NCBI GenBank assembly: GCA_020638795.1
Contig: JACKHW010000005.1
Coordinates: 218,023-282,022 of the forward strand
Length of the DNA stretch: 64,000 nt
Source of the DNA: Planctomycetota bacterium
GTDB taxonomy: Bacteria > Planctomycetota > UBA1135 > GCA-002748355
Direction: 5' to 3'
In this document: piece after piece, positions 145 through 62,414 of the stretch
How positions within the stretch are numbered: position 1 is the stretch's first letter
Layout of the letters: each line of letters starts with the position of its first letter
Program-made: the position numbers and the translations under genes
Notes under the pieces: model-generated
Seen by the model: the letters and a program-made list of their open reading frames with translations, nothing else
The model's database searches: none
What the model was told of the DNA's origin: nothing

Positions 145-2043
145 CTACGGGAACACGAAGCGAACCGCGTCGGACGCTTCGGGGACGAATGGCGGCCCTT
201 TGGGGTCGTAGATGTAGCACGCGCAGAAGGCGGGTAGCCCCGTCAGACCCGAGTTCTTGGGGATCGGAAGGCGGATTGCTTGGAGACCTTCGGGAGGCAC
301 GACGCCGACGAAGCCCGGGGCGCCATCGACGATGGCGAACAGTGCATCGGCGCGTAGGGGAATCAACGTTGGGCCGACGGGGATGCCAGGAGTCTTGCCG
401 AGGGACAGCCCGAGAGCGATCACTTTGCCCGTCCAGCGATTCGTCGACTCGAAGAAGTGCAGCGCACCACCGCCCGGAGTCGCTGCATCGAGACGTTCGA
501 CGCCGACGCGCAACGGCCACGCCAAAGGGCTCGCCACGCTGTTAGCTGCACCCGGTGTGCCGTAGTCCTTGCTTCCGTACGTTCGCGTCGCCGTCTCGAA
601 GTTGTTCGAGGCGGCACCGATTTCAACGTCCACGCGTTCGGCCGCCTTGCCTAGCCCTCCGGCGAATCCCGAACCGTACGACACACGCTCGAGCGACTTC
701 GAGCCATGCGCGACTTCGATGTTGTCTGCGTCGTCGTGCAGGATGACTGCCCGCGCGGGCCATGAATGCGCGAACGGCAGACCACCGTTTCGCGATGCGT
801 CCCCGTGCTGTGCGAGCAGCAGCGAACGGCGAGGCAGAAGGCGATAGGGCGCGGCGACTTCGAACGAGCCGTTGTTCGCACGCACGACGAGTCCACGCAG
901 ATTGATCGGCGAACCCGATCGATTGAAGACCTCGATGTACTCGCCCCAGAAGAACGATGGTTCGCGCTGGAACTCGCTGATGACGAGGTCGCCTGGCGTC
1001 GGCGTGTTGCCAGCGAACTCATCGGTGTAGAGCTCGACCGATGCACCCGTCTCGGACGAGATCGTGTACCGCCAACCGTCCGTCGCGAGCAGCATCGTGC
1101 CACCACTCGTGAAGCCGGGTTCGCCCGCTCCGGGAGTCGTGCTGATCACGAGACGGTTCTTCGTCGTCGTGCTCATGCGATCGAGCGTCGCGCGGTGAGG
1201 CACGTTGTGCGTGTTCTTGTGCGAACACGAAATCACACACACTTCGGGATCGATCGTGTCGAGCAGATTCTGGTTGGAGCCGTCGTCCCAGCCGTGGTGG
1301 TTCGCGAGATAGACGTCGACGTCACCGCACACTCGACTGACCGGCGTCTCCATGTCGTAGCGACTGCCGCCACCCGTCAGGTCACCGCCGAGCCAACACG
1401 AGAAGTCGCCATAGTCGACGCGCACGACGATCGAGGCGGAGTTCTCGTAGTTGGACGTGCTGTCGATCGCGTGGCGTGTCGACGAGCCGAGGACGTTGCC
1501 GTCGTACGCGAGCACGGTTGCCTTGGCGCCGCCACCGAGGTCGAAGACTTGTCCAAGCGAAACGGTCTTGCGCTTGGAGCCAGCTGCATTCACGTACGTC
1601 GTATAGGACCCGGCAAAACCGCTCGTGTTGCGCGTACCGCGATCCCACACCTCGTCGAACGGCAAGGCGTTCATCACTTCGTCGATGCCGCCGATGTGAT
1701 CACCGTGATAGTGCGACGCGACGACGTAGCGGATGCGCGATACGCCCAACTTCTTCATCGCAGGGACCATCGCTTGGGTGCCCATGCCGTTCGGGCCACC
1801 ATCGAAGACCATGCACGTCCCCGTGGGTCCGACGATCACGATGCCATCGCCCCACTGGACGTTGACGAAGGCGATGCGCAAACCGTTCGGACTACCGACA
1901 GGGCGAACCTGCGATTGCGCGAGCGTCGACAACGCCATCGCAGCAAGACAAGCGGACGCGAACGCTGAGCGCAGCAGCGCGAAAGAGACGAAGGAAGGAG
2001 GCCGCCACGACGGGCGGCGCATCGATCGTGGTTCCGATTCCAT
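145..2043 (-). CDS. Secreted MBL-fold hydrolase (ComEC/Rec2-type metallo-beta-lactamase domain) fused to a lamin-tail (LTD) domain
   Basis: 632-aa ORF with ATG at 2043. Signal peptide ends ...ALSTLA|QSQ. MBL metal motif is ASHYHGDHIGG. LTD-like segment is GDLVISEFQREPSFFWGEYIEVFNRSGSPINLRGL. The last ~110 aa weakly resemble the module shared by other secreted proteins here. Confidence 0.75.
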   Translation of the reverse strand: MESEPRSMRRPSWRPPSFVSFALLRSAFASACLAAMALSTLAQSQVRPVGSPNGLRIAFVNVQWGDGIVIVGPTGTCMVFDGGPNGMGTQAMVPAMKKLGVSRIRYVVASHYHGDHIGGIDEVMNALPFDEVWDRGTRNTSGFAGSYTTYVNAAGSKRKTVSLGQVFDLGGGAKATVLAYDGNVLGSSTRHAIDSTSNYENSASIVVRVDYGDFSCWLGGDLTGGGSRYDMETPVSRVCGDVDVYLANHHGWDDGSNQNLLDTIDPEVCVISCSHKNTHNVPHRATLDRMSTTTKNRLVISTTPGAGEPGFTSGGTMLLATDGWRYTISSETGASVELYTDEFAGNTPTPGDLVISEFQREPSFFWGEYIEVFNRSGSPINLRGLVVRANNGSFEVAAPYRLLPRRSLLLAQHGDASRNGGLPFAHSWPARAVILHDDADNIEVAHGSKSLERVSYGSGFAGGLGKAAERVDVEIGAASNNFETATRTYGSKDYGTPGAANSVASPLAWPLRVGVERLDAATPGGGALHFFESTNRWTGKVIALGLSLGKTPGIPVGPTLIPLRADALFAIVDGAPGFVGVVPPEGLQAIRLPIPKNSGLTGLPAFCACYIYDPKGPPFVPEASDAVRFVFP

Positions 2044-2333
2044 GCGAGTTTCGGGGGGGTCGCGGTTCGAGGAGGACCGCTCGAAGGACGGGAGAGTCGC
2101 GCACTACGCAGAAAGGTCACACACTGGTCGGAGGACGACCGACAGTTCTGGATCTTCTCCCTCGCGGTCTCACGGCACACGAACCGAAAGCGCCGCTGAC
2201 ATGGCGCCGATCGGCGCAAGTCACCACAGACGCCATGCCGCGGACGATTCTCGATTTTCGGCGCAGGTTCGGCTTCGAGAGCCTCCTTCCGGGGCACCAG
2301 GACCGCGCTCTCGATGCCACCGCGTCGAGGTCT

Positions 2334-3542
2334 TTACGTACCGATCTCACCAGCCGGAATGCGCCGAAGCGTGTCGTCGTAGCGCAAGTACTTCGATCCG
2401 CGACGCAGCCACGCTTCTTCGCCCTCTTGGAGAGCATCGTGCAGAGCCCGATCACCCACTCGACCCTCGAGATAGTCGAGCAAGCGCGGGTCGGCGGCGA
2501 GCAACTCGATCGCGGGGCGATCGCTGCGGAACTCGTACTTCTCCGTACGCCAACGGAACTCCGGTGCAAGGTCCTTGATCCACCGCAGCAGCTTCAGCAT
2601 GTGGCGCAGCGAGGGATAACGCGATGGATCGGACGCGTCCGTCAAGTGGATCTGCCAGCCATGGCAGAGTTCGTTGCCGAACTTGTGGAACGTCGGTACG
2701 AAGCGCAATGGCCGCAGTACCGCACCGACTTCGCACGGCGGCTCCTCGCGCATGAGCGGCGCGAGCCACGACGCGCCGAAGATCTCGAACGGACGCGTGG
2801 TGCCGCGGCCTTCACTGAGGTTGGTGCCCTCGAGCAGACAACCACCGGCGTAGACGCGCGCTGTGTTCGCGGTCGGCATGTTGGGCGATGGCGACACCGG
2901 GTCGTGCCACTCGAACGGATCGCGGCACGGCAGCACGTGCATCGTGACATCGGCACCGGTCACCTCCTGATAGAACGACGCGAGTTCCGCCGTCGTCAGC
3001 CCATGACGATGCGGCAGACCCGGCCGCCCGACGAACGACTCGTGTTCTGCGGCAAGCGCGATCCCCTCGACGTAGCGACCGCAAGGGTTCGGTCGATCGA
3101 GGATCCACACGTCGAGCTTCGAACCGTCTGACGCGACACGATCGAAGACGTAGCTCAGCGTCGTCGCGAACGTGTAGTACCGCGCACCGACGTCCTGCAG
3201 ATCGACGACGAGCGCATCGAGATCCGCGAGGTGCGCCGACGAGACCGTCAGGCTGTCTTCCGTGTCGCCGTAGAGCGAGACGACTTCGGCCTCGATCCCG
3301 AGGTCGCGATAGACCCGCGCATCCTGCGGAAGTTGATCCTGCAGTTCGGCGAACAGCCCGTGCTCGGGCGCGAACACGCGCTGCAGGTTGCCGCGCTTCG
3401 ACAGCGCATCCCAGAGGTAGCAGCCACGCGTGGTCGACCAGCTCGTCATGTTGGCGAGGAGCCCGAGCCGCCCTTCGTGGAGGACGGCATCGTTGCGCGC
3501 GAGGAAGTCGTCGATCGGATCGTGCGTGTGCGTGTCGGGCAT
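2334..3542 (-). CDS. DUF1343 family protein (NamZ-like exo-beta-N-acetylmuramidase family)
   Basis: 402-aa ORF with ATG at 3542. Motifs LLANMTSW, FAPEHG and DLQDVGARYYTF are characteristic of DUF1343. Confidence 0.8.
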   Translation of the reverse strand: MPDTHTHDPIDDFLARNDAVLHEGRLGLLANMTSWSTTRGCYLWDALSKRGNLQRVFAPEHGLFAELQDQLPQDARVYRDLGIEAEVVSLYGDTEDSLTVSSAHLADLDALVVDLQDVGARYYTFATTLSYVFDRVASDGSKLDVWILDRPNPCGRYVEGIALAAEHESFVGRPGLPHRHGLTTAELASFYQEVTGADVTMHVLPCRDPFEWHDPVSPSPNMPTANTARVYAGGCLLEGTNLSEGRGTTRPFEIFGASWLAPLMREEPPCEVGAVLRPLRFVPTFHKFGNELCHGWQIHLTDASDPSRYPSLRHMLKLLRWIKDLAPEFRWRTEKYEFRSDRPAIELLAADPRLLDYLEGRVGDRALHDALQEGEEAWLRRGSKYLRYDDTLRRIPAGEIGT

Positions 3543-3554
3543 GTCCGCAGGAAC

Positions 3555-3961
3555 CTATCCGCAGCACCGCGAAAGCGAAATGCCCACGGCGGTCAGGCAC
3601 TCACGCGTTCGAAGAAACTCGTCACGCGAGCACGCGTCGGCTCCGAGCGCGAGCGCTTCGAGCACGTCGAGGGCCGTGATGATCTTGCGGCTCGCGAGCA
3701 GCCGGACCTTCGATCGCAGAACATGATGCTCGCGGGCCGCATGCACGCGCGGCAATGAGTGCGCGAGCGGCATCCCTACCGAGTCGCTGTCTTCGAGCGG
3801 TGCCGCGCCGGTTCCGTCTTCTTCACCATCGACCGTGATGAAGTCGGGGACGATGCCGGTGTCCTGCATCGCGCTGCAAGTGCTTCGAACTCACGCATCG
3901 AGCCGACACAGAGCAGGCAGCCCACGATCAGGATGAAGAAGGCAGGCTTGACGAAGCGCAT
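3555..3961 (-). pseudogene. Remnant of an FMN-binding glutamate-synthase-family (YerD-like) gene
   Basis: Frame A (3961 down to ~3899) encodes only a TM-like N-terminus, MRFVKPAFFILIVGCLLCVGS. Frame B (3869..3555) encodes a 104-aa internal piece, PDFITVDGEEDGTGAAPLE...GMPL...RKIITALDVLEALALGADAC. That piece matches the GltS FMN-domain core (xDxItIDGxxGGTGAxP ... GKIxTxxDxxxAlALGAD), which sits around residue 330 of ~500-aa relatives. The frames differ and about 300 codons are missing. Confidence 0.5.
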
Positions 3962-4098
3962 CGTTCCGTTCCTCGGGTTGCAGCTTGCAAACGGACGACT
4001 GCGAACAACGCGAACTCCCCGCTGCTTTTGTCTGTGCGATTCACAGTGCGGTCAGCGCTGAGGTCTCCGTCCGAGAAATCAATCAAGGAGAGACCGAG

Positions 4099-5199
4099 AT
4101 GAACACCTTCCGAAAGACACTTCCACTGATCGTCGCGATGACCGCCACTGGCTTCTTGCACGCGCAAGACGGAACGGAGAACGTACAGATCGAGAGCTAC
4201 GGTGTGAGCTGCGGTGCGCAGCTGACTGGCTCGATCGCAACGAGGCGGCTCGCGATCACGGTGACGGATGCACTGCCGTGCCAACCGGTCGCGATCGTGC
4301 TCGGTTCGCATGCGCAGAGCTTGGCGCTGCCGGGATCGCCGTGCCGTCTGCTCACGAATGCGCAGCTTTCGGTGCCGTTGCTCGCGAACTCGCGCGGTGC
4401 GGCATCGCTCGAGATTCCGCTGCCCGGAGCGTTCTCGAGCCTCTTCGCCCAGGCAATCGCGCATGACGCGGGCAAGCAGCGCTTCGTCGGTTCGCAAGGC
4501 TTGGCCGTGCACGATGCCACAAAGGACGAGCGCGTGATCGCGGTCGTGCGGGCGGGCGGTTCGTACATCCGCTTCGTCGAATCCGAACCCGGCGAGCTCC
4601 TCATCGTCGCGCTCGATGGCACGAAGGCGCATCGCGATGCATTCGCGCGCTACGAAAGCGGCGCGATCACGGCCGCCGAACTCTATACGTCACTCTCCGG
4701 ATTGACCGCGCCGAGCGCGCTTCGAGCGCTCTCCGTGAAGGTCGCGAATGCGCGCAAGTCGGAGACCATCGAAACGCCTCTGCAGGGTTCGATTCTGGCA
4801 CCGTTCGTCGGAGTGCTGCCCGGTGCAGTTCCGGGGCCTCGCGGGCAGAGTGGCAACGCCGGTCCCGCGGCATGCAACAGCGCCTCGTGGTTCACCGGCA
4901 TGTATTGCAATCACCCCGGGGACTTCGAGTACTGCTGGACCAACTTGACGGGCAATCCGTGGGTCCAGAAGTACTGCCACGCGATGTATGGACGCGTCGC
5001 CTCGGTGAGCGGCAACTTCGGGTTTGCCTACAGGCGCTGGAACGGCAGCAGTTGGTACATCGTTTGGTCGACCAACGTGACGACCTGCCAGACCTTCTAC
5101 TGCAACGCGAGCTACTCGTCGCCCCGGCACTGGCGCCGGATGGACGTCGCAGGCGGCGACGGCGATCTCAAGCACTTCCGCGTCGCCGGCTACAACTGA
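4099..5199 (+). CDS. Secreted hypothetical protein with the two-Cys shared module at the N-terminus and a Cys/Trp/Tyr-rich C-terminal domain
   Basis: ATG at 4099 is preceded by AAGGAG (4085-4090). Signal peptide is MNTFRKTLPLIVAMTATGFLHA|QDG. The track ORF starts upstream at 3985, but that extension lacks a signal peptide. Confidence 0.7.
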   Translation: MNTFRKTLPLIVAMTATGFLHAQDGTENVQIESYGVSCGAQLTGSIATRRLAITVTDALPCQPVAIVLGSHAQSLALPGSPCRLLTNAQLSVPLLANSRGAASLEIPLPGAFSSLFAQAIAHDAGKQRFVGSQGLAVHDATKDERVIAVVRAGGSYIRFVESEPGELLIVALDGTKAHRDAFARYESGAITAAELYTSLSGLTAPSALRALSVKVANARKSETIETPLQGSILAPFVGVLPGAVPGPRGQSGNAGPAACNSASWFTGMYCNHPGDFEYCWTNLTGNPWVQKYCHAMYGRVASVSGNFGFAYRRWNGSSWYIVWSTNVTTCQTFYCNASYSSPRHWRRMDVAGGDGDLKHFRVAGYN

Positions 5200-6603: not shown

Positions 6604-9600
6604 CTACCGCACCTTGCCCCCGCGCTTCTCCAAAAGCGGCGTGAAGTAGCGGTAGTAGACCTCGAGGCTCAGCACGCACATCGCGGTCGTGTAGCTGCGA
6701 TCCTTGCGCGTGTCCTTCGCGTAGCGCGCGTAGGCCCCGACCGGCGCGAAACTCCCGTCCGAGCTCTGGCCGCGTGGCAGCTCGACGCGCAGCTTCTCGT
6801 TCCAGAGCCGCCATGCGTCGCCGCCGCGGAAGAAGCACGCGAGCGTGCCGTAGTACCAGAAGTACGGGTTCCCGGCCCCCCGCTGCACGAAGTCGTCGTC
6901 GCTTGCCCGCGCGTACTTCTCGATGCGGCGATCGGTCGTGAAGCGCAGCCCCGTCTCGATGCGCGGATCTTCCGGATCCTGGCCGAGCAACAAGAGGCAG
7001 AACACCGATGCAGGAGTCGACGCTGGCAGCGTGCGCCACGTCATCTGCAAACGCTGCGGTTCCTTCGTGTAGAGGAAGTAGCCGTAGCGATCATCGAACA
7101 TTTCGAGCAAGAAGCCCTTCGCCATCGCGAGCGCTCGCTCCGGGACGTCGAGCCCCGAACGACGCGCCGACTCGAGGGCCATGATCTGCCAACTCGAAAC
7201 CGAGGCACGGCTGTACGGATCCTCGGGCTTCAGCGTCGGACTGTAGTAGCCCCAACCACCGCGACTGTGCCGCGGTCCGCCGTCTCTCTGCTGCTCGAGG
7301 ATCCAGTCAACCGCGTGGCTCAGTGGCTTCTGCAGCCATGGCAGCTTGGTCAGCGCGTAGCACTCGGCAAGCGCGTACGTCGTGATGCCGTGGCTGTAGG
7401 ACGACGAACGCCCGAAGTGCCCCGTGTCCTCGTCCTGACTCGCGAGCAGAAAGCGGATCGCGCGCGCGACGTTGGTCGCGTACTGCCCCTTGCCGACCGG
7501 ATCGCCGTCCTGCCCGGGCGCGGGGATCGTCGGTGGCAGGTTGCCCGCACCGAGGAAGGCGAGCAGACAGAGCGCCGACTTGCCGACGCGCACTTCGCCG
7601 TACTTCTCGTCGTAGTCGTCCTCTTCGCCCCAACCACCATCGTCTCGTTGGATCTTGGCGAGGTAGCGAAGGCCCTTCTGCACCGCGAGTTCGGTCTCCT
7701 CGGTGCCGCCGAAGCGCGCGAGCGCCTCGACCTTCTTCTTGCCGAAGCGGTTCGCATAGAGCGAGACCTCGGCGGGCTTCTTCTCCGTGACCGGTACGAC
7801 TCGTACGCGTCGCTGTGCACGATCGACCTGCGTCGACGGTGGAAGCACGCTGCCGGCATCGAGTCCGTCACGCCGGCGTTCGTCGCCGAGCATCGCGACC
7901 GGGCTCGAGGGCAAGGTCTCGACCTTTTGGATGCGTGGCAGAGCAACGCGTTCGACGCTGACCGACGGCGGCCCCTCGGTCGCACGCCGAATCGGGACAG
8001 CGCGGGACGCGATAGGCGCGTTCACGGCAACCGCTGTCGCCGGCACCGAGACGCGGCGTGACGACATCGGCCTGGCGCGTGCGACGCGTTCGGATCTTCC
8101 TCCGACGCGGACGACGCGTGGCTTGGCGAGATCGAACTCGGGCGGTGCGACGCTCGCGCCTTCGACGAAACTCGGAGCAGGTTGCGCGTCGAGCGCTCGC
8201 TGCGGCTGCGCCACGGCGGCGCGTGCTTCGTCGGCCTTCGTCACGAGTTCGCGTGCGGTCACGCGCGACTCGTCGAGTGCGGTCCCGGGCTTCGGTGCAT
8301 CGGCGATCGCGCCCGTGTCCACTGGCGTGTCGACCGCGATTGCGGGCGCGAGGCCGGGTCGCGGCCCGTTGGCGACGAGCGGCCGGCCGTCGCGCGTCCG
8401 TGCTGGCGGTGCACGGCGCGTGCGTGGCTTGGCGAAATCGGTGGACGGCGGCGCAATCTCCGCAGCGATGTCGTCGACCGGGCGTTCCGCTTCGGCCTTG
8501 TTCGCTGCTGCCGTCACGACCTCGGACGACGCGCGTTGGATCGTTGCGGCCTTGGCGGTCAGCGCTTCGCCCGTTTCGTCCGACTTCGCCCTACCCTTCG
8601 CGCTCGCGACACGATTCGCATCGGGCGTGTCCCGCAACTGCGGCTCGCGTGCCGACAGCTCGCGCTGCGTGACGGCGGGAGCGACACGTGCCATCCGTTC
8701 TGGTCCGGGGCGCTTCGAGGTCACACCGGACAAGACCGCATCGGGTGCGGGCAGATTCGCTTGTTGCTCGAGGTCGCGCGCCTTGCTGTCCGCGACACGT
8801 TCGGCATCGGGAACCGTCTCGAGCCGCGCGGTGCTCGTCGAAGCTGCCGCCGGTCGTGCCATCGCGGGATCCGCGTTCATGCCGAGCTTCGCTTCGACGG
8901 CCTCGAAGGCGGAGTCGGTTTCGACGGTCGGAATCGCGATCGCTACGGGCTCCTGCGCGCGCACGTCCCGGCTCGCTGCCGGCACACTGCGAGCAGCGGT
9001 CTCGCCCGACTTCGGCGTCGCGTCCGCAAGAGTCGACGCGGACGGGATCGCGACTTCGATCACCGCTCGTTCGGCAGCGCGCTGAGGGTCGGCGGCCTCG
9101 GTCTTCGCTTGTTCTGCAGTCGTCGCGATCGCGTCCGGAGCCACCGTCGTGTCCTGCCCGGACTTGGGCGCGAACTTCGGCAACTCCTCGGTCACGGCAC
9201 GCGCCTCGGTCGTCGGCGCATCGAGCTTCGCGACTTCGGTCGTGAGTTCGCGCGAACGGTCCGCCAAGAACTCCGCACGTTCCTGTCCGTCGCGCGCCGC
9301 GGTCGCCACCGATGTCTGCGGGACTACCGGCGCGAGGTCTCGTTCGAAACCTTCGAACTCGCGTCGCTGCCCGAGATCCGACTCCGCCCGCGCAGGCGCT
9401 TCGTCGGGTGCGCGCTCGCCCGTGAGTTCTGCCGAACTCATGAGGCGTACTTCGACGCGATCCCCGACTTCAGGCACCGGTGGCAAGAACGTGCGCACGA
9501 TCTCGACGCGCATCAACCACAGGAGCAGGAGCAAGTGGATCAGGAGCGATGCGAGCAAGCACTGCGTGATGACGTCGAGCGCTGTCCACCGTCCACCGAG

Positions 9601-11121: not shown

Positions 11122-11785
11122 CGCGAATCTCCGGCTTGCCCGCGAGACGCTCGACCCACGGTGCGAGCCGCTCGTCGCACGCGAGCATCAGGCGACGCGA
11201 CTTGCCCGAGAAGTGCGCTGCGATGAGCATCGTCGGGATCGCGACGCAGAGCCCCGCGATCGTCGTGACGAGAGCGACTTCGATCCCGGACGCCAACATC
11301 TCCGGCTCCCCCATCTTCGTCTTGACGACGCGATGGAACGCTTCCTGGATCCCGAGCACCGTGCCGAGCAGACCGAGCAGGGGCGCGACGCCCGCGATGA
11401 GGTGGAGCGTGCGGTTGTTGCCGCGGAGCTTCTCGAGTTCCTTGTGCGCTTGGTCCTCCATCGCGACCTCGACCGCGCGCACCGGATGACCCTGGCGACG
11501 CATACCTGCGAGAAGGATGCGGGAGGCGGGCGCGTTCATCTCTTCGAGGATCGTCTTGGCGCCTTCGTGGTCGCCGGCACCGAGCTTCGCTTCGGCCTCT
11601 TCGAGACGTGCCGGAATCACGCGCGAGCGCGTCAGTGTGCGCAAGCGTTCGAGCGTGAACGCGACCGCGACGAGCGAACAGAGCGCGATCGGGATCATGA
11701 CCGGCCCGCCAGAACTCAGGAAGTCCCAGACGGTCTGCACCGTGGTCTCGGTCTGCAACCGTGCGATCGAAAGAAGCGACGTCAT
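11111..11785 (-). CDS. exbB: MotA/TolQ/ExbB proton-channel protein
   Basis: 224 aa with three TM segments and a conserved C-terminal region, LGLLGTVLGIQEAF...GIEVALVTTIAGLCVAIP. Confidence 0.9.
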   Translation of the reverse strand: MTSLLSIARLQTETTVQTVWDFLSSGGPVMIPIALCSLVAVAFTLERLRTLTRSRVIPARLEEAEAKLGAGDHEGAKTILEEMNAPASRILLAGMRRQGHPVRAVEVAMEDQAHKELEKLRGNNRTLHLIAGVAPLLGLLGTVLGIQEAFHRVVKTKMGEPEMLASGIEVALVTTIAGLCVAIPTMLIAAHFSGKSRRLMLACDERLAPWVERLAGKPEIRDAA

Positions 11786-11837
11786 CTTTGGTATCCGGTG
11801 CCTTGGTTCTTCGTGTCGATTGCGCGCGGAGCGACGA

Positions 11838-19545: not shown

Positions 19546-20688
19546 ATGCGAACGACTCTTCAATCGCTCCTCGCCGTCACTGCGCTGACCGGTCTCGCCA
19601 ACGCGCAGTTCAGCCTCAGCGAAATCCTGATCAACCCCCCCGGCAACGACGACGGCTACGAGGCCATCGAGATCCGCGGCGCCGCGAACGCGGCCCTGAC
19701 GGGGTACTACATCCTCGCGATCGAAGGCGACGGCACGAATGCCGGCACCGTCGACACCGTCATCAACCTCGGCGCCTACAGCACGGGATCCAACGGCCTG
19801 TTGCTCATGCGCGACAGCTCGACGATCGTGCTCAAGCCGGCTCCCGCGGCGGCGACGACAGTCGCGGTCGACGCGGCTGCTTTCACGCCCGACATCGAGA
19901 ACGGCACGATCACGATCGTCCTCGGCTTCGGAACGGCTCCGACCGTGTCGGTCGACCTCGACGCCAACAATGACGGCGTGCTCGACAACGGCATTCCCGG
20001 TTTCACGACGGTGGACGCCGTCGCGTGGACCGACGGCGGTGCGAGCGACTTCATGTATGCCGGCGCTCTCGGCGGCTTCGATCAGCCGAACACGCATACG
20101 TTCACGCCCGACGCGGCCTATCGCATCTATGACGAGAACGGCAAGCCATGGTGCTGGACGTTCGCGGACGTCCTCACGTCGGCGACCGCGCCGGATGGAC
20201 CGTTCACGTTCGACTTCGTCGGCTTCGATTTCTCCGGCGGCCTCGCCGAGAGCTTCGGCCCGCAGCAGCTCGACCTCGGCAATATCAACGGCCGTCTTCA
20301 GTTCTGCACCGACTACTACGGCATCAGCACGGCCAACGGCGGCACCCAGACGATGCTTCTCGACGCTGGCTCGATCAACGCGAGCGGCTTCGCCCTGGTC
20401 GTCGGTAGCCTCTCGGGCACGAAGCCCGGCATCGCGCTCGGCTCCCTGACGATCCCCGTCAACTTCGACCCGTACACGTCGCTTCTCCTCAACGCGCCGA
20501 ACACGCTCGTCAACCCGTCGGTCGGCCTGCTCGACGCACAGGGCCGCATGACGTCGAAGTTCGCGCTTCCCCCCGCGTCCCCCGCCACGATCGGCATGAC
20601 GTTCAACCACGCAGCCGTGATCCTCGACAAGACGTTCTCGACCTTCAAAGCGGTCACGAACCCGACGACGCTCTTCATCCAAGCCTGA
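19546..20688 (+). CDS. Secreted lamin-tail-domain (LTD) protein
   Basis: Signal peptide is MRTTLQSLLAVTALTGLANA|QFS. LTD motif is LSEILINPPGNDDGYEAIEIRGAANAALTGYYILAIEGDG. The C-terminal ~120 aa weakly resemble the shared module. Confidence 0.7.
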   Translation: MRTTLQSLLAVTALTGLANAQFSLSEILINPPGNDDGYEAIEIRGAANAALTGYYILAIEGDGTNAGTVDTVINLGAYSTGSNGLLLMRDSSTIVLKPAPAAATTVAVDAAAFTPDIENGTITIVLGFGTAPTVSVDLDANNDGVLDNGIPGFTTVDAVAWTDGGASDFMYAGALGGFDQPNTHTFTPDAAYRIYDENGKPWCWTFADVLTSATAPDGPFTFDFVGFDFSGGLAESFGPQQLDLGNINGRLQFCTDYYGISTANGGTQTMLLDAGSINASGFALVVGSLSGTKPGIALGSLTIPVNFDPYTSLLLNAPNTLVNPSVGLLDAQGRMTSKFALPPASPATIGMTFNHAAVILDKTFSTFKAVTNPTTLFIQA

Positions 20689-23391: not shown

Positions 23392-24045
23392 ATGACGTGC
23401 GGCGACGGACGGCAAATCGAAGGCATACTCCCGCCGTCCTGTGCGGTGTTCATGGCGCCCTTGGCCGTACCGGGGAGCCGCGCGGCCGCCCGTACCGCGG
23501 GACGGACCTTGGCAGCGAACGCACTTGACGAGCTCGGGCACGACGAACCCGGCATCGAGATCCCAACCGGTGAACGCGGAGCTCCGGTCTGGCCCGCCGG
23601 GTTCACGGGTTCCATCTCGCATACGAAGAAGCGCGTCATCGTCGCGATCGGTCGCCTGACCGACCATGCGTCCATCGGCATTGACATCGAAGAGCAGAGT
23701 CGAAACGTCTCGATGAAGATCCTGCCACGCATCGCCACGCCGCGAGAACGCGCCTGGATCGAGCATGGCATCGACGACGCACTCCGGGCTCCGCGCGAGC
23801 GTCTACTCGCCGTGTTCTCGTCGAAGGAAGCCATCTTCAAAGCGCTATGGCCGCTCTGGCGTCGAGAACTCGGATTTCACGATGCGATACTCGTTCGCAC
23901 CGCGGATGGATTCGAAGCCAGCCTGAATCCAGGAATCGCACGATCAATGACGCCGGTGATCCCACGGTTGGAGATCCAGGTCACCCATGCGGATGGCGCG
24001 ATCGTTTCCGCCATCCACGTGCCGCGCGTGGATCAAATCCCGTAG
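23392..24045 (+). CDS. 4'-phosphopantetheinyl transferase (EntD/Sfp type)
   Basis: 217 aa. Motifs are PVWPAGFTGSISHT, IGIDIEE and FSSKEAIFKALW. It starts 12 nt after the upstream stop. Confidence 0.8.
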   Translation: MTCGDGRQIEGILPPSCAVFMAPLAVPGSRAAARTAGRTLAANALDELGHDEPGIEIPTGERGAPVWPAGFTGSISHTKKRVIVAIGRLTDHASIGIDIEEQSRNVSMKILPRIATPRERAWIEHGIDDALRAPRERLLAVFSSKEAIFKALWPLWRRELGFHDAILVRTADGFEASLNPGIARSMTPVIPRLEIQVTHADGAIVSAIHVPRVDQIP

Positions 24046-25088
24046 GCCGTCGGGCAAGCGCTGACCGAGGGCCCGGTACCGCTCGTCGACGTCGGCGTCG
24101 TGCCGTAGATTCGCTTGACGGTCACGGCCTGCGTCGAAGCCTGCTGCGGCGCGGAGACGAGCTGTCCGTTGGAGAAGACGAGCGGCTTTGTCGCGGACGT
24201 CACGTCGAGCGAGAGCACCTGCGTGTAGAGCACGACCTGCGTATAGCTCGAGTTCCACGGAGCCTGGATGCCGATCGTCGTCGGAAGGAAGCCATTCGCA
24301 TCGGTAGCTCCGAGCCCCACGAGCAGGATCGGATTGACGTGCAAGACGCCGCATGCGTTCGGAAGTTGGATGTTGGGATCGCTCGCACCAACGAGCAAGA
24401 CGATCGGCGCCGCCGACGGTCCGTTCGTCACTTTCACACCGAGTTCGATATTGGTCGCATCAGCGCGGAATGCCGTATCACTCCGCATGGCTCCGTTCTT
24501 CGTTGCACAACCACCTCCGAGATCGGAAGGGTAGTCTCCGTACGTATGCGCGATGTTGGTGCTCTGCCAATCTTGCGGCATCGCATTGAGGGCGTTGTTG
24601 CTGTTGATGACGTCCCAGACGATCGCATCCGTCCGGTTGTAGATGAACGGCGAATCCAACTTGACCTGGAAGTCGAACTCTTGCGGAGTCTTGCTCGAGG
24701 CGGTGGTCCAATCCGGGAGACTGACCGCCTTCTTCGTGAACACCGTGCGTGGCGTGTCCTTGTAGTTGGACGCCCACGTGTTGGACACAGTCGCGAAATC
24801 GCTGTGTGCCATGACGATCTCTAGAGTCACCGTCTTGTTCGCAGAACCGGTGCCGAGGCCATCGCGTCGCCACGCGAGGTAGCGAATCGCCGGCAGCGGC
24901 AAGCCAACGAGACTGTTGTCGACCTGCTGCACGCGCGTGTCCGCGCTGTAGTTGCCGAGCATGATGTTCGACGAGCTGTTGCCCTCGAAGAACTCGATCC
25001 CACGCGGGCTGGCGAACTCGAGCGTCTGCGAACAGACTCCGGACGAAACGACGACGAGTGACGAAAGAGCGAGAAGAGCAATACGCAC
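24033..25088 (-). CDS. Secreted protein, full-length member of the local paralogue family (two-Cys module near the C-terminus)
   Basis: Signal peptide is MRIALLALSSLVVVSSGVCS|QTL. The N-terminal domain shares a conserved block with the other full-length paralogues (...VQQVDNS...IRYLAWR...TLEIVMAHS...). The module runs GGGCAT...NACGVLHVNP... Confidence 0.7.
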   Translation of the reverse strand: MRIALLALSSLVVVSSGVCSQTLEFASPRGIEFFEGNSSSNIMLGNYSADTRVQQVDNSLVGLPLPAIRYLAWRRDGLGTGSANKTVTLEIVMAHSDFATVSNTWASNYKDTPRTVFTKKAVSLPDWTTASSKTPQEFDFQVKLDSPFIYNRTDAIVWDVINSNNALNAMPQDWQSTNIAHTYGDYPSDLGGGCATKNGAMRSDTAFRADATNIELGVKVTNGPSAAPIVLLVGASDPNIQLPNACGVLHVNPILLVGLGATDANGFLPTTIGIQAPWNSSYTQVVLYTQVLSLDVTSATKPLVFSNGQLVSAPQQASTQAVTVKRIYGTTPTSTSGTGPSVSACPTAYGI

Positions 25089-26045: not shown

Positions 26046-27569
26046 GTGAAACACACTGCTTCTCTCACAGCGGCATCCGCATTGCTGCTCACCTTGCCCG
26101 CAACCGCACAACTCAATCCCCCGAACCCGACACCCGCGGTATCGCCGCGCGCCAACTGGGTGCGGTTGACCAACATCCCCGGCGAGCCCACGCAGCGCCG
26201 TGACAACCCCGGTGCAGCGAGCCAAGACAAGCTCTACGTCTTCGGCGGTCGCGACGGGAACGCCAACAGCAACACGCTCAACGCGCTCTACGAGTTCGAC
26301 GGCAAGACTTGGGTGATCAAGACTTCCGAAGGTGCAACGGGTTCGCCCCCGACCCGCGGTGGCGCATGCATCTGTTGGGATTTCTCGCGCAACAAGCTCG
26401 TCGTCTTCGGCGGCGACACCGGCGGCACCACGCCGACGTTGCTCGGCGACACCTGGGAATGGGATCCGACGACCAACGCGTGGACACAGATCACCGGTGC
26501 GGGACCTGCCGCACGCCGCTGGGCTGCGATGGCGTACGACCCGTTGCGTCGTGGCATCGTCCTGTTCGGTGGCGAAACCGTCCTCAACGGCGCGCCGGTC
26601 AACGACACGTGGTTCTATTCGAACGGTGTTTGGGCTCTGCAGTCGACGGCGACGTCGCCGCCTGCACGCCGACAACATAGCATGATGACCCGGCAGAGCT
26701 ACCGCGACGTACTCCTCGTCGCGGGCCAGGATTCGACCGCGACGCCGCAAGTGCGCTTCCTCGACGTCTGGCGTTGGAGCGGTGTGTCGTGGACCCAGAT
26801 CAACACCAACGGCACGCACCCGCACGGCACGACGGCCAACCAAGCGGTCTATGACGAAGCGCGTCAGCGCGTCGTCATGCAAGGCGGCCAGGGGATCTCC
26901 GTTCCGAACAGCGCAGGCGGAGGCCAGTACGGCGACCTCTACGGTGGTTCGCCATCGACGTGGTGCAGCGAGTTCGACAGCTTGACCAACAAGTGGATCC
27001 TCTACGGGCAATCCGGTTTCAATACCGCCGACCCGGCAATCGGTCGCGTCAGCCGTTACTTCGGAGGCTACGTCGCGTCGCTCGAAAAGGTCTACAAGGT
27101 CAGCGGGCAAGACCCGTCCGGCCTTGCGGGCTACCGCTTCACGGCCGAGTATCAGGCCACGCCGATCGCGTCGACCACAACTCTGGGTTCGGGCTGCCAG
27201 AGCATCTCGCTCGATGCCACGTCCCCCGAAGATCGCCCGTGGCTCGGCCGCACACTGACGACGACCGCAACCGGCCTCAAGACCGGCTCGATCTCGCTCG
27301 GCCTGCTCGGCTTCCAGTCGTACAACATTCCGCTCAGCTCGATCTTCAGCTTCGGCGGCACGGGCTGCACGCTCTACAGCGGCTTCGACCTCCTCGTCGT
27401 GTTGCCTAACGTCCAAGGAAAGGCGACGTTCGCTCTGCCACTCCCGGCAGACTCGCAACTCGCTGGCGCGAACTTCTACGAACAAGTGCTCGAGTTCACG
27501 CTCTCCGGCTCGTCGTTCACGGGCGCAGCCTCGTCGAACGCGCTGACGCTGAACGCCGGCGCTCTCTGA
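26046..27569 (+). CDS. Secreted Kelch-repeat beta-propeller protein with C-terminal two-Cys module
   Basis: There are several Kelch-like blades (FGGRDGNANSNTLNALYEFDGKTW, FGGDTGG...GDTWEWDPTTNAW, FGGETVLNG...NDTWFY). Signal peptide is ...ASALLLTLPATA|QLN. The start is uncertain: GTG at 26046, or TTG at 26031. Confidence 0.8.
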   Translation: MKHTASLTAASALLLTLPATAQLNPPNPTPAVSPRANWVRLTNIPGEPTQRRDNPGAASQDKLYVFGGRDGNANSNTLNALYEFDGKTWVIKTSEGATGSPPTRGGACICWDFSRNKLVVFGGDTGGTTPTLLGDTWEWDPTTNAWTQITGAGPAARRWAAMAYDPLRRGIVLFGGETVLNGAPVNDTWFYSNGVWALQSTATSPPARRQHSMMTRQSYRDVLLVAGQDSTATPQVRFLDVWRWSGVSWTQINTNGTHPHGTTANQAVYDEARQRVVMQGGQGISVPNSAGGGQYGDLYGGSPSTWCSEFDSLTNKWILYGQSGFNTADPAIGRVSRYFGGYVASLEKVYKVSGQDPSGLAGYRFTAEYQATPIASTTTLGSGCQSISLDATSPEDRPWLGRTLTTTATGLKTGSISLGLLGFQSYNIPLSSIFSFGGTGCTLYSGFDLLVVLPNVQGKATFALPLPADSQLAGANFYEQVLEFTLSGSSFTGAASSNALTLNAGAL

Positions 27570-27772: not shown

Positions 27773-28780
27773 ATGCAACTCTCACTCTCTCCATATTCTC
27801 TCTGCGCTTTCGCACTGGGTTCCCTCGTCGTTCTCGCAGCCGATGTCGGTGCGCAGCAGTCGATCCCCACTGGCTTCCTGACGGACGCCGGAGCCTCGTA
27901 CACCAACTACCCGTTCGGTCTCGCGAACTCGCGGGTGCAGTATCTCTACGACGCGTCGTTGATCGTTCCGCCTGCGCTACCGATCAATCAACTCGAAGTC
28001 CGCGCACACCCGAGCCTCACAGCGACGGCACACACAGCGACGTTCGAGATTCGTATCTCGACTTCGCAGTCCGCTTGGGACTCGGCATCGACGACGTTCG
28101 CAACCAATAGCGGGAACGACGAAGTCGTCACGTTCACGCCGAAGAGCGTCAACCTTCCCGGTTATGCATCCTCGACGACGCCCAACTGGCCGACCGTGTT
28201 CAAGCTCGACAAGCCATTCGTCTACATCAAGGCGAAGGGGAATCTCTTGATCGACTACCTGAAGTCGAATGGGCAATCGACCACGTATCCGTCGAACGTG
28301 GTCTGGAACAAGACAGTTGCATCCAACACGATCGGCACGCCGTGCAAGACGGCCAACCAGTCGTTCACCGGCGGCGCTGCGATTTCGACGACGTCGACCC
28401 TCATGTTCTCGCTGACGGGAGGTCCGGCGAACGGAGCCGCTGCGCAGATCCTCTCGTTCCAGAAGCTCCCGCAGTCGGTCCCTCTGCCCAATGGCGGCTG
28501 CCCGCTGCACGTCGTCCCGTTCCTCGTCTTCGGCGTGGCAACCAGTGCGACGGGGACAGCGAGCGTGACGTATCCAACCCCGGTCGGCACGCGCAGCCTG
28601 ACGGGTCCGGTCGTCTTCAGCCAGTGGGTCGGCCTCGGCGCAACTTGGGACTCGAGCCCCGCGATCGAAGTGACGATCGGCGGCTACTTGCCCTGCTGCC
28701 GTATCTACAACACGTCGAGTGCGACCGCGACGACCGGCAGCGTGCAGATCGGTGCAGGCATCGTGCACAAGGTTCTTTGA
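27773..28780 (+). CDS. Secreted protein, full-length member of the local paralogue family
   Basis: ATG follows GGAGAG. Signal peptide is ...LVVLAADVGA|QQS. By eye roughly 40% identical to the 60274..61272 product (GFLxxxGSxxTxYPxG...RxQYLYDxS...TTFAxNxGxxEVVxFT...). Confidence 0.75.
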   Translation: MQLSLSPYSLCAFALGSLVVLAADVGAQQSIPTGFLTDAGASYTNYPFGLANSRVQYLYDASLIVPPALPINQLEVRAHPSLTATAHTATFEIRISTSQSAWDSASTTFATNSGNDEVVTFTPKSVNLPGYASSTTPNWPTVFKLDKPFVYIKAKGNLLIDYLKSNGQSTTYPSNVVWNKTVASNTIGTPCKTANQSFTGGAAISTTSTLMFSLTGGPANGAAAQILSFQKLPQSVPLPNGGCPLHVVPFLVFGVATSATGTASVTYPTPVGTRSLTGPVVFSQWVGLGATWDSSPAIEVTIGGYLPCCRIYNTSSATATTGSVQIGAGIVHKVL

Positions 28781-32585: not shown

Positions 32586-32794
32586 GAATTTGGCTCCGCT
32601 GGGCATCCTTGCGAGCTGGGCATCCTTACACTTTGGCATGCGTGCCCTCTGGCATGCGTGCGATCGGCAGAGGAGGCGCACCTACGATACGCCCCACCCG
32701 ACCGAACGCCATCGAGCAGCCCCGGAGAAACCGAGGTCGTGCTCCGACGGACACCCGACGCACGATGCCACCGCGGGCTCCGCGCCCGCCGCAG

Positions 32795-34138
32795 TCAGTT
32801 GTCGAGGATCGCCGTGCCCAGCTCGGAGGTGGCGATGCCGAGGGCGTTGGCGGACGCGTCGAGAACCGCGACCTGCTCGTACCACTGCGTTCCTAGAAGT
32901 GAAGTCGAGTTGGGGACCGGGAACGTACGCGTCGCGACACCACCCGTGGCCACGAGGCCGAACGTCGTCAGCGGCAGAGTGTAGAGCGTGCAGCCGCTGG
33001 CACCCGCGTTCGTGAGGTCGATCGACACGCTCTGTGCACCGATGATCGAAACGCAGACACTTGGCACGCCCGTGACTTCGATCGTGAAGTTCTCGCCGAG
33101 TTGCGGCACGTTTCCGCTCAGGTGCACATCACCCGCGGACGACTTACACGACGTACCCGAGATGTCGAACGCGCCGTGTCGCAGCATGAAGCTGTCGAGC
33201 TGGTAGCCGAATTTCGATCCCGTCTGGATGTTGCGGAAGATGAAGCGAAGCCCGGTGTTCGCCTGGGTCACCTTGAACGACACGTTGGGCGAGAGCTGCC
33301 ACGTGCCGGTCTTCTGCTCGGCGGTCGTCCACGTGCGCGTGACGAATCCCGCTGCATTGATGTTGTGCAGGAGGTCGAGATTCCAGAGACCCGTCGCGGG
33401 CACGAAGATGCGATAGTTGAACGTGTACACGCCGGGTTGCAGGATCAGATCGTGCTTTGGGTCCGTCGCGGACCAACCGTAGAAGCTCTTGTGTTCCATC
33501 CAATTGACGCCAGCGGGCTCGGCGACTTCACCGAAGGCCGACGTCGCCTCCGCGACATGGTTCTTGAACCACGTCGCGTTCCCGAGCCAAGCACCGCTCC
33601 ATGGCGCATAGTCGTAATCGAGACTCTGGTACTCGACTGCCTTTTCGGGCAACTGACCGACCTTGAACCAATCGAAGTAGTAGTTCTGCTTCGTGATCGT
33701 CGTGTCGAGGTTGAAGAGACGGAAGAGCACGGGCGCGTTGTCACTCAGCACCGTGAACGTGACCGTCTGACCATAGATCCAGCGGTCCGTGGCCTGGGAG
33801 TGCGTGATGGTCTCGGCGGTCTTGCGCACACCGCCGGAGAACACTTCCAAGCTGATCGGCGCGACGCCGACGTTGTCGGTGAACTTCATGAAGCGTACCG
33901 TCGCGACGTAGTGACCCTTCTTGAGCGCGTTGAGCGTGCGCGTGTAGGTGAACGTCGCGGTCGAGTCGAGGCGGTCGACCTTGCCGCCCTTGGATCCAGC
34001 GAGGGTGAAATCGTCGGTCCAACCGGCGACCGGCGAGTGCGGCCAGTTGGTCATCGATTCTTCGAAGGCGACTTGTGCTGCCGCAGAACCGGCGAGGAGG
34101 GCGAGAACAGGGATTTGTAGGAGGAGAGTCGGTTTCAT
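32795..34138 (-). CDS. Secreted protein with two CBM/jelly-roll-like domains plus the C-terminal two-Cys module
   Basis: ATG at 34138. Signal peptide is MKPTLLLQIPVLALLAGSAAA|QVA. Two internally similar beta-rich domains end in YYFDWFKV and YQLDSFML. The module runs GTSCKS...GASGCTLYTLP...FPVPNSTSLLGTQWYEQV. Confidence 0.7.
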   Translation of the reverse strand: MKPTLLLQIPVLALLAGSAAAQVAFEESMTNWPHSPVAGWTDDFTLAGSKGGKVDRLDSTATFTYTRTLNALKKGHYVATVRFMKFTDNVGVAPISLEVFSGGVRKTAETITHSQATDRWIYGQTVTFTVLSDNAPVLFRLFNLDTTITKQNYYFDWFKVGQLPEKAVEYQSLDYDYAPWSGAWLGNATWFKNHVAEATSAFGEVAEPAGVNWMEHKSFYGWSATDPKHDLILQPGVYTFNYRIFVPATGLWNLDLLHNINAAGFVTRTWTTAEQKTGTWQLSPNVSFKVTQANTGLRFIFRNIQTGSKFGYQLDSFMLRHGAFDISGTSCKSSAGDVHLSGNVPQLGENFTIEVTGVPSVCVSIIGAQSVSIDLTNAGASGCTLYTLPLTTFGLVATGGVATRTFPVPNSTSLLGTQWYEQVAVLDASANALGIATSELGTAILDN

Positions 34139-38124: not shown

Positions 38125-38202
38125 CTCCCCGCTCCTGTTCGAGCAGGCAGATTCATGGCGCCCCGGTTGCCCTTCGAATCACTCATCTCCCCTCCCACGA
38201 CA

Positions 38203-57857: not shown

Positions 57858-57860
57858 GCG

Positions 57861-60191: not shown

Positions 60192-60273
60192 GCCGCCGAG
60201 CTTAACCCCAGCTGCGAACTCGGACATGCGCCGAGCCTGCGATTTCGTCCGTCCGGGGCGACCCTATGCGACT

Positions 60274-61272
60274 TCACTGAATGCGGTGGACGATCCCCGA
60301 TCCGACCTGCACCGATCCCGTCGGGCTGGTCGTTCCCGTGAGGTCGTAGATCCGACCGTGCGGCAGGTAGCCGCCGAGGACGACTTCGTGCGCCTGCGTC
60401 GAATTCCAGGACGTCGCGGTGATGCCGACCCACTGACCGTAGACGACCGGCCCAGCCGTCGTGCGCGTGCCGAGCGGGATCGGATATGTCATGGACGCGC
60501 TTCCTGATGCATTGGTGACGACACCGAACACCAGCAGCGGATTGATGTAGAGCGGGCAATTCCCGAAGGGCAGCGGGACGGGCGTCGCGAGCTTCTGGAA
60601 ACCGAGCACGTGGGCCGCAACCCCACTGATCGGTCCCCCAGTCAGACTGAACGTCAAGGTCGACGACGCCGATGTCGACGTCCCACCCGACACGGATTGC
60701 GACGCCGTCACGCACGGGGTTCCCACGGCGGTCACGACTGCGGAGCGACTGAACTCCGTGTCCTGCGAAAGGGAGCCACTCACGGCCTGAGTCATCACGT
60801 ACTCGATGAGCAGATTGCCGGACAGGCGCGTGTAGACGAACGCCGTGTCCAGCTTGAAGACGATCGCGAACGGCTGAGGATTCATCGCCGTGAACGCCGG
60901 CGTGTTGATCATCTTCTTCGTGAACGCGACGACCTCGTTGGCACCTCGATTGGACGCGAACGTCGTCGAAGCGTTGAAGATGTCGTAGCGCGAGGACGAG
61001 AGCCGAATCTCGAGTTCGATCCCCGTCTTGGCACCGTAGGTGCCGTTCTCCTGGGCGCGAATCGCGAGTTCTCTGATCGACACGACGGGCTTGGCGAATT
61101 CCGATTCGTCGTAGAGGTATTGGATTCGCATCGGCGACGCGGACCCGAGCGGATAGGCCGTCGAACCGGACCCGGTGATGTTGAGGAAGCCATCGGGCAC
61201 GGTGTCTTGCGCAACGACGACTTGGCCCGCCGAGAGGGCGAACGCGAGAGCGGTGGGAAGGAGAGTTCTCAT
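60274..61272 (-). CDS. Secreted protein, full-length member of the local paralogue family
   Basis: The internal ATG at 61272 gives signal peptide MRTLLPTALAFALSAGQVVVA|QDT. The upstream 376 codons of the 708-aa track ORF are an off-frame read-through across the neighbouring gene. Confidence 0.75.
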   Translation of the reverse strand: MRTLLPTALAFALSAGQVVVAQDTVPDGFLNITGSGSTAYPLGSASPMRIQYLYDESEFAKPVVSIRELAIRAQENGTYGAKTGIELEIRLSSSRYDIFNASTTFASNRGANEVVAFTKKMINTPAFTAMNPQPFAIVFKLDTAFVYTRLSGNLLIEYVMTQAVSGSLSQDTEFSRSAVVTAVGTPCVTASQSVSGGTSTSASSTLTFSLTGGPISGVAAHVLGFQKLATPVPLPFGNCPLYINPLLVFGVVTNASGSASMTYPIPLGTRTTAGPVVYGQWVGITATSWNSTQAHEVVLGGYLPHGRIYDLTGTTSPTGSVQVGSGIVHRIQ

Positions 61273-61367
61273 TCGCGAGATTCTGTGTCCCGCGCACGTC
61301 GCTGCAAGCCCCCGAGAGCATGGGCCGGCCTCGGCCGGCTCGCATCCCTCTCGTCGCACGCCGTGCT

Positions 61368-62414
61368 TCAGGGCTTCAAGAAGTGCGTCACCGTCGAGTT
61401 GACCGTGTAGGGCCCGTACTGCGCGGTCGCACCATCTCGCGTCCAGTTGTACATGTAGTTCACGAGCCCCACGTTGCCGATCATCGACCACGTCGCGTTC
61501 GATGTGCCGAAACCGGATGCCTTGCTCGCGTCCGTGAACATCGCCTGCGCATGAATCGTGTACGTCGAACCCGCCGGAACGGGAACCGGTAGGGACACAC
61601 GACTCGCGGTCGTCGTCACGGGCGCCATGACGAACGTGAAGATCGGATCGACGTCGAGGGTACAACCCGTGAACCCGAGCGGGCCGAGATCGAATGGCAG
61701 ACGGATCGCGCCTGCGAAGAAGGCAGAATCGAAGCCCAAGAGCAGAATCGTCGGCGTCGACGCTTGCAGATTGTTCGCGGTGTACACGAGGCTCGAACTC
61801 GAAGTGTCGTAGCTGCTCGTGAGGCTCGCGGCCCCGCACGACGTGCCGGTCGTCCCATTCAACGGGACCGTACTCGTCTGATAGATGCCATCCATCGTCC
61901 TGGTGCCGAGCGTGCCGAAGCTGGTACTCGTCTGGATATCCCACTGAATGATCAAGTTGGGACCAGAGAAAATGAACGGTCGGTCGCCCGCGAACCACGT
62001 GCTGGATTGATTCGGTCCGACGGTATTGACCGCTGGCAGTGAGATCGTCTTCATCGTGAAGAACGTCGTGGGCGTCGCTCCGAGATTCTGTGCGAACGTC
62101 TGCGACATCGTGAAGCCAGCCGTCGAGCTCGCCATGACGATCTCGAGCTTGTGCTGCAAGGTGACCGCCGTGCGATTCTCCTTGAGTCCGAGGGACGTGA
62201 CGATGCCGGCGCGCAGGTTGGATCCATCGAACCAGCACTGGAAGAGGCAACGCGAACGGCCGAAGAAGATGTTGGCACCGGTCGGCGAATTCCCCACTCC
62301 GGTCAGGACTTTCGGCAACGTGCGAAGGTGCGGCGTCACCTGCGCATGCGCGGGCACGACGGCGAGCAGCGAGAAGCTGAGGACGAGAACGGACGTGCAA
62401 CGCATGGCTGTCAT
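61368..62414 (-). CDS. Secreted protein, divergent full-length member of the local paralogue family
   Basis: ATG at 62414 gives signal peptide MTAMRCTSVLVLSFSLLAVVPAHA|QVT. The module runs GTSCGA...GFTGCTLDVDP...LPVPVPAGSTYTIHAQAM. Confidence 0.7.
   Translation of the reverse strand: MTAMRCTSVLVLSFSLLAVVPAHAQVTPHLRTLPKVLTGVGNSPTGANIFFGRSRCLFQCWFDGSNLRAGIVTSLGLKENRTAVTLQHKLEIVMASSTAGFTMSQTFAQNLGATPTTFFTMKTISLPAVNTVGPNQSSTWFAGDRPFIFSGPNLIIQWDIQTSTSFGTLGTRTMDGIYQTSTVPLNGTTGTSCGAASLTSSYDTSSSSLVYTANNLQASTPTILLLGFDSAFFAGAIRLPFDLGPLGFTGCTLDVDPIFTFVMAPVTTTASRVSLPVPVPAGSTYTIHAQAMFTDASKASGFGTSNATWSMIGNVGLVNYMYNWTRDGATAQYGPYTVNSTVTHFLKP

Follow-up and report, generated by a model that had tools for sequence, protein, structure and literature searches.

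A recurrent two-cysteine module on exported proteins of Planctomycetota

We analysed a stretch of 64,000 nucleotides from a Planctomycetota bacterium (assembly GCA_020638795.1, contig JACKHW010000005.1, positions 218,023 to 282,022; hereafter the window), in which seven predicted secreted proteins carry a common module with two conserved cysteines. The original prediction, made from the letters of the window, had placed this module on seven to nine proteins with unrelated passenger domains. The recurrence on seven proteins is real, and it is recovered by profile searches among the 555 stop-to-stop open reading frames (ORFs) of the window. We are confident, close to certainty, that the module, of ~120 residues, is a genuine and uncurated domain family. 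The count of seven members is firm and a count of nine is plausible. The module is found almost always at one end of the mature protein and is not restricted to the C-terminus. Its function is a matter for more cautious proposals; the one that we favour, tentatively, is a position-flexible docking or retention module of exported proteins.

Homology between the modules is detectable both by pairwise comparison and by profiles. In BLASTP, the module of a carbohydrate-binding-module-like (cbm-like) protein matches that of a Kelch protein at E 1.9e-9 and those of the products of the genes starting at 27773 and 60274 at E 2e-3 and 3e-3, respectively. A hidden Markov model (HMM) built from these four modules and searched against all 555 ORFs recovers the other three, namely those in the 24033 (E 1.5e-8), 61368 (E 3.5e-6) and 4099 (E 1.5e-4) products; the next best ORF of the window has an E-value of only 0.31. 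A second HMM, constructed from 151 relatives from outside the window, gives the seven modules E-values from 1e-31 to 4e-13 and adds no other member from the window.

The scores of this second model are given here with the position of each module. The Kelch-propeller protein (gene 26046..27569) carries the module at its C-terminus (27183..27566, forward strand; E 1.3e-28), and its Pfam Kelch matches occupy residues 35-192. The cbm-like protein (gene 32795..34138) also has a C-terminal module (32798..33157, reverse strand; E 9.7e-32), which retains the D-x-x-A-N motif of the family. In the products of 27773..28780 (module 28328..28645, forward strand; E 2.2e-18) and 60274..61272 (60412..60726, reverse strand; E 8.6e-22) a C-terminal extension of ~43 amino acids comes after the module. 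Two further modules belong to the products of 24033..25088 (24168..24521, reverse strand; E 3.8e-16), with the second cysteine displaced by one residue, and 61368..62414 (61497..61850, reverse strand; E 4.5e-20). The seventh stands directly after the signal peptide of the 4099..5199 product (4198..4482, forward strand; E 3.8e-13).

Every motif element that had been listed for the module by eye sits on a conserved column of the family. In the G-x-x-C element the cysteine is conserved in 90% of sequences, and in the LLxG strand the glycine in 95%; the G-C-x-L element retains its cysteine in 99% and its leucine in 84%. Further downstream, the glycine of the G-x-A...P-x-P element is conserved in 89% and its two prolines in 61% and 88%, while the closing G...Q pair shows 82% for the glycine and 97% for the glutamine. 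Both cysteines are kept in 178 of the 181 distinct (non-redundant) modules that cover both columns. The three exceptions are a partial domain, the 24033 product, in which the second cysteine is offset by one residue (ACGVLHV), and the near-identical P0010, with the same displacement. All seven window members have both cysteines (the second one shifted in the 24033 product), G47, L55-P56, G-C-x-L, G83, P-x-P, G99 and Q105.

The cysteine and P-x-P positions thus line up across the members, and therefore the similarity reflects homology and not composition. A purely compositional resemblance, i.e. Ala/Gly/Ser/Thr-rich beta strands in proteins that share no homologous module, has in its favour that the module is of low complexity in charge and that A, L, G, T and S make up 54% of its residues. 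However, profile E-values reach 1e-31 with the Cys, G, P and Q columns aligned, and the structural model becomes confident once family sequences are added. We give this explanation practically no chance and consider it refuted by the profile searches together with the aligned cysteines.

Two other window proteins had been reported to end in weaker look-alikes without the cysteine pair, and these turned out to be Cys-less tails of a family of their own. One closes the LTD protein (gene 19546..20688; tail 20281..20685, forward strand) and the other the MBL-LTD protein (gene 145..2043; tail 148..537, reverse strand). Neither is significant against the module profile alone, with E 0.02 for the LTD tail (profile positions 23-122) and E 0.18 for the MBL tail; single-sequence hhalign comparisons are not significant either (for the MBL tail, P 0.009 over 37 columns). 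The two tails lack both cysteines and do not show the full column pattern of the module family. The LTD tail has a clear homolog at the end of an FG-GAP protein (P0163), and the LTD, MBL and P0163 tails, of ~130 amino acids each, have 19 invariant columns in a three-way alignment. A profile of these sister tails matches the Kelch module from end to end (E 0.0037 among the 555 window ORFs) and many of the outside modules in register (best E 4e-7 among the 151). In hhalign, the tail profile and the module profile are matched with a probability of 38% and P 3e-4 over 41 columns. Judging from these comparisons, the LTD and MBL tails are probably, but not provably, a Cys-less sister family distantly related to the module.

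The original prediction had recognised no named domain in the module, and profile searches of Pfam-A, NCBIfam and PDB sequences uphold this. In Pfam-A (2025 copy), no model hits the module of any window protein at E<=1, and none matches the family consensus or six outside modules at E<=10. NCBIfam release 20 gives no match for the window proteins (E<=1) or for 43 family members, and profile searches of PDB sequences return only noise. We found no description of the module in the literature on C-terminal sorting domains of Planctomycetota, on Kelch repeats combined with signal peptides, or on the type IX secretion system (T9SS) in Planctomycetes.

The family is large. Word-indexed homolog searches yielded only 1, 14 and 1 matches, and 1.84 billion cluster representatives (50% identity) were searched exhaustively with HMMER instead; this search detects the module in 4,569 representatives at E<=1e-3 and in 144 at E<=1e-10. 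A scan of one genome per species with the family consensus as query confirmed 32 loci. Most of these are titled 'Planctomycetota bacterium', and they include the cultured Engelhardtia mirabilis Pla133. The named close homologs are all proteins from metagenome-assembled genomes (MAGs) titled 'Planctomycetes bacterium' and annotated 'hypothetical protein'. Within the range of the sampled loci and named matches, all named hosts are Planctomycetota. Engelhardtia mirabilis Pla133 belongs to the Saltatorellus clade, and for both Engelhardtia and Saltatorellus changes of shape and apparent fusion have been reported (bioRxiv 10.1101/817700).

The module is modelled as a ten-strand beta-sandwich. AlphaFold, run on the module of the Kelch protein with an alignment of 43 sequences, gives a predicted local distance difference test (pLDDT) score of 94.5 and a predicted template modelling (pTM) score of 0.87 for an all-beta domain of ten strands with a long hairpin at the end. 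With the seven window sequences alone the pLDDT was 61.6, and that model was not used for the fold search. A Foldseek search of PDB with the confident model finds nothing at E<=1e-3. The best template modelling (TM) scores, 0.44-0.53, are to generic Ig-like sandwiches; weak matches with TM-scores of 0.41-0.48 include a porphyran-binding carbohydrate-binding module (CBM; 8wae, E 9e-3) and the C-terminal domain of a GH158 laminarinase. A conserved polar set (Q, D, A-N and S-N) is located on the last beta-hairpin of the model. The module is poor in charged residues, with a median isoelectric point of 5.4; as computed from the sequences, neither net charge nor isoelectric point gives a clear hint at its role.

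The placement of the module was surveyed in the best ~150 relatives. In 132 of 151 matches (87%) it ends within 8 residues of the C-terminus, and the protein end falls 8-9 residues past the conserved S-N. The C-terminus typically reads S-N-G-G-x-A-x-I-G-x-[RK], the last residue being R or K in 44%. In ~9% of the matches an extension of 30-65 amino acids follows the module, which is also the layout of four paralogous window proteins described below. A module at the mature N-terminus, with hundreds of residues after it, is found in the 4099 product, its ortholog P0003 (90% identical, from another Planctomycetes MAG), P0017, P0024, P0068 and P0115. At least 5 of the 151 representatives are of this type, and the N-terminal modules all start right after the A-x-A|Q cleavage motif of the signal peptide. 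Engelhardtia adds two tandem paralogous genes that encode a signal peptide, the module and two lamin-tail-like (LTD) repeats, in that order (locus L021 of Pla133, NZ_CP036287.1 780286-786564, ORFs 998-2656 and 2899-4452). This order is the reverse of that in the LTD proteins of the window, whose related tail is C-terminal. Finally, P0044, P0047 and P0088 are complete proteins that consist of a signal peptide and the module only. The N-terminal placement in the 4099 product, which the original prediction had pointed out, is thus found in other carriers too, in each case directly behind the signal peptide, and this recurrence argues against a purely C-terminal tag.

The passengers had been described as very diverse. 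This holds across the family and fails among the seven window members, four of which are paralogs of one another. In a survey of 101 relatives of at least 240 amino acids, Kelch propellers are present in 24. The other passengers include Rax2/DUF5122 propellers, DUF6087, DUF4082, WD40, beta-lactamase-family domains, cytochrome c7/c3, CARDB, M36 peptidase, CHRD, FG-GAP, PKD, BNR and LamG. No glycoside hydrolase is among the 25 most frequent passenger families. DUF6087 was also considered as a name for the module itself and rejected: it matches five relatives but neither the module consensus nor isolated modules, and hence it lies outside the module, in the passenger region.

The products of the 27773, 60274, 24033 and 61368 genes are full-length paralogs (BLASTP E 1e-95 to 2e-8), the 27773 and 60274 products being 48% identical over the full length (E 9e-95). 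Consequently, the window shows four distinct contexts of the module: the Kelch protein, the cbm-like jelly roll, the four-paralog family and the 4099 type. The four paralogs have in common an N-terminal domain of ~160 amino acids (approximately 27848-28327 on the forward strand, and 60727-61212, 24522-25028 and 61851-62342 on the reverse strand). No Pfam model matches this domain in the proteins tested, and its identification with DUF6087 was rejected as well. The same domain is found in 21 of the 151 outside relatives, always upstream of the two-cysteine module and in up to three copies per protein (P0052). Behind the module, the paralogs have a conserved extension of ~40 amino acids (...R-I-Y...G-x-x-Q-x-G-x-G-I-V...; 28646-28777 on the forward strand, and 60277-60411, 24036-24167 and 61371-61496 on the reverse strand), which is also present on P0013 and P0048. 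Among paralogs the module shows no less conservation than its passenger; in the closest pair the module is 63% and the passenger 40% identical. Besides the module, a new and uncurated domain family, the sister tail and this shared N-terminal domain look like two more.

We tentatively favour a role of the module in docking or retention, and the basis for this proposal is the architecture of the carrier proteins. After Sec export, the two cysteines may form a stabilising disulfide, a bond predicted solely from the near-invariance of both residues in exported proteins. The module would then serve as a non-catalytic, position-flexible docking or retention unit and would tie many unrelated exported passengers (propellers, jelly rolls, LTD proteins, peptidases and c-type cytochromes) to one common partner located in the cell envelope or on the cell surface. 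The conserved polar residues Q, D, A-N and S-N on the last beta-hairpin are a candidate contact site. Several points weigh against this proposal. It is drawn from architecture alone, and the 87% C-terminal bias would fit a secretion signal, too. Gly, Pro, Leu and Cys, which are structural residues, account for most of the conserved positions, and the conserved polar residues, few in number, may lie in the interior and not form a binding site. Six exact peptide patterns and the named nr matches served to sample the taxonomic range, and the module may also occur outside Planctomycetota; among the locus titles are some with Brocadiaceae, Anaerolineaceae, 'uncultured bacterium' or 'bacterium'.

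The same architecture may be explained in other ways. The module could be a folded C-terminal secretion or sorting signal, similar to the C-terminal domains (CTDs) of T9SS cargo, which a putative outer-membrane translocon or sortase of these Planctomycetota would recognise in order to move the passenger through or onto the outer membrane, and which it would possibly cleave off. The layout of T9SS cargo is indeed reproduced, with a Sec signal peptide, a variable passenger, a terminal beta-sandwich (C-terminal in 87%) and a fixed distance from S-N to the end; the paralogs are numerous within a genome and confined to a restricted lineage, roughly one in two signal-peptide proteins of the window bears the module, and it is unusually poor in charged residues. 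Yet it matches none of the T9SS CTD profiles of Pfam and NCBIfam, it may stand at the mature N-terminus (4099, P0003, P0017, P0024, P0068, P0115 and the two Engelhardtia genes) or make up the whole mature protein, ~9% of the carriers continue for 30-65 amino acids beyond it, and no conserved gene for a neighbouring machinery was seen; we consider such a signal unlikely. A substrate-targeting module, i.e. a CBM or an adhesin domain that steers passengers to an external polymer or surface and not to the envelope of the producer, is a somewhat doubtful alternative. It would agree with the beta-sandwich fold and its weak matches to 8wae (E 9e-3) and the GH158 laminarinase domain, with the use of either protein end, as in CBMs, with the conserved Q/D/N/S-N cluster on the last hairpin, and with the co-occurrence of jelly-roll and propeller binding domains. 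The fold matches are, however, non-specific (TM <=0.53, none at E<=1e-3), the 25 commonest passenger families include no glycoside hydrolase or other catalytic domain of carbohydrate-active enzymes (CAZymes), and cytochrome c7 and beta-lactamase-family enzymes would be odd partners of a CBM.

An inert Ig-like stabiliser or spacer that has no common partner and owes its spread within one lineage to duplication and domain shuffling seems very improbable to us. A fold resembling generic Ig-like sandwiches, the predominance of Gly, Pro, Leu and Cys among the conserved positions and the frequent tandem gene duplications would be expected of it. But spacers are usually internal and repeated, whereas the module is terminal and almost always single; its glutamine reaches 97% conservation, and the D/A-N/S-N polar motif persists across 4,569 clusters; it is more conserved than the passenger in the closest pair of paralogs; and it occurs on its own behind a signal peptide. 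Docking is preferred over a T9SS-CTD-like signal because the module is used at either end, occurs stand-alone, has no T9SS match and travels with no machinery gene. The passengers, which are not CAZymes but include cytochromes, are our reason for placing docking above a classical CBM as well. We regard no one of these arguments as conclusive. A more far-reaching reading, to which we assign a low probability, is that the module and its sister tail are the recognition domain of an undescribed pathway for sorting or surface attachment, which would be peculiar to these Planctomycetota with their shape-shifting Saltatorellus clade. In function the module would then be a counterpart of the T9SS CTD with PorU/PorV that arose independently in evolution, and much of the exported proteome would pass through the pathway.

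In kind, the module resembles known terminal beta-sandwich accessory modules. With the type A CTD of T9SS (Por_Secre_tail, TIGR04183 / PF18962) it has in common a small beta-sandwich at the extreme C-terminus of Sec-exported proteins, many unrelated passengers, many copies per genome and a restricted lineage. T9SS is a system of Bacteroidota and the Fibrobacteres-Chlorobi-Bacteroidetes (FCB) group, whereas the hosts of the module are Planctomycetota. The module also differs in that it has no profile match to this CTD (NCBIfam E<=1, Pfam E<=10; window proteins, consensus and 43 members), no T9SS CTD structure among its top 50 Foldseek PDB matches, a conserved Cys pair, and N-terminal and stand-alone occurrences; it is not always the last domain (132 of 151 are C-terminal). 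The functional analogy that we favour is with the SLH, LysM and CWB2 anchors, which are non-catalytic, are found at either end of diverse exported proteins and are highly paralogous. Their folds and sequences are unrelated to the module, and they usually occur as two or three repeats, which bind peptidoglycan or secondary cell-wall polymers, while the module is almost always in single copy. CBMs and Ig-like (E-set) accessory domains of secreted enzymes (e.g. the CBM 8WAE) are also beta-sandwiches in a terminal position; in contrast to CBMs, the module has mostly non-CAZyme passengers, no Pfam CBM match and only a non-specific fold match. The PPC domain (PF04151) is likewise a C-terminal beta-sandwich of secreted proteins, of roughly 70-100 amino acids and dispensable for catalysis, but the module has no profile match to it; PPC is mainly found on secreted peptidases and removed on maturation, and the passengers of the module are far broader. 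Finally, the PEP-CTERM/exosortase, LPXTG/sortase and GlyGly-CTERM/rhombosortase systems also rely on a lineage-specific tag common to many exported proteins. Their signals consist of a motif, a transmembrane helix and a basic tail, in contrast to the module, which ends in a predicted beta strand (...I-G-x-R/K) with no hydrophobic helix and has no NCBIfam match.

The window itself is an ordinary chromosomal stretch with a G+C content of 62-68% that bears housekeeping genes (NamZ, ExbB/ExbD, SMC, NrdR, MnmE, FBPase, CorA, an ECF sigma factor and SpoVR/DUF444). The module genes are scattered among them. Across the family, such genes often come two or three in a row and are otherwise surrounded by housekeeping genes, and inspection of the gene neighbourhoods showed no recurrent partner gene beside them. 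The translations of the nine carrier genes agree with those quoted earlier. Two gene models agree with the NCBI calls in GCA_020638755.1 (332 and 348 amino acids), and by exact look-up a protein identical to the 60274..61272 product is called in that assembly on contig JACKHY010000045; for the cbm-like protein, an exact look-up returned no record. The secreted status assigned to the carriers is borne out, as all nine products open with a Sec-type signal peptide that ends in A-x-A before a Q. By manual reading of N-termini, the window encodes ~13 signal-peptide proteins, seven with the module and two more with the sister tail.

Essentially all signal peptides in the window end in A-x-A followed by Gln (...AQ), and hence the predicted mature N-terminus is a glutamine that could cyclise to pyroglutamate. 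The genes concerned are 145-2043, 4099, 19546, 24033-25088, 26046, 27773, 30930-32681, 32795-34138, 50496, 51416, 60274-61272 and 61368-62414. One of them, 50496-51392 (forward strand), encodes a 298-residue signal-peptide protein without a Pfam match. It has some eight CxxC / CxxCxGxG motifs, similar to zinc fingers of the DnaJ type, and behind them a helical tail rich in Lys and Glu. The SpoVR-like and DUF444 genes adjoin each other (46987-49622, reverse strand); these two usually accompany PrkA in the operon of that kinase. A gene for a rhomboid-family protease is located at 44521-45210 (reverse strand), and a link between it and the module is unlikely because the module proteins show no substrate signal of the GlyGly-CTERM type. 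Due to the high G+C content, the window contains many long spurious antisense ORFs opposite real genes (e.g. 8182-10020, 11517-15005 and 35665-38637, forward strand); one further spurious antisense ORF, 40813-41160 (forward strand), matches the module at chance level (E 0.04).

A curated model of the module would annotate thousands of Planctomycetota proteins that are now only called 'hypothetical protein', and it would delimit a class of exported proteins in a lineage that is poorly understood and unusual in its envelope biology. If the module is merely a stabilising Ig-like domain, its value is limited to annotation. If it proves to be a docking or sorting handle, it would point to the way in which these bacteria display proteins on their surface and would supply a tag for surface display. 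Engelhardtia mirabilis is in culture, so the function of the module is testable.

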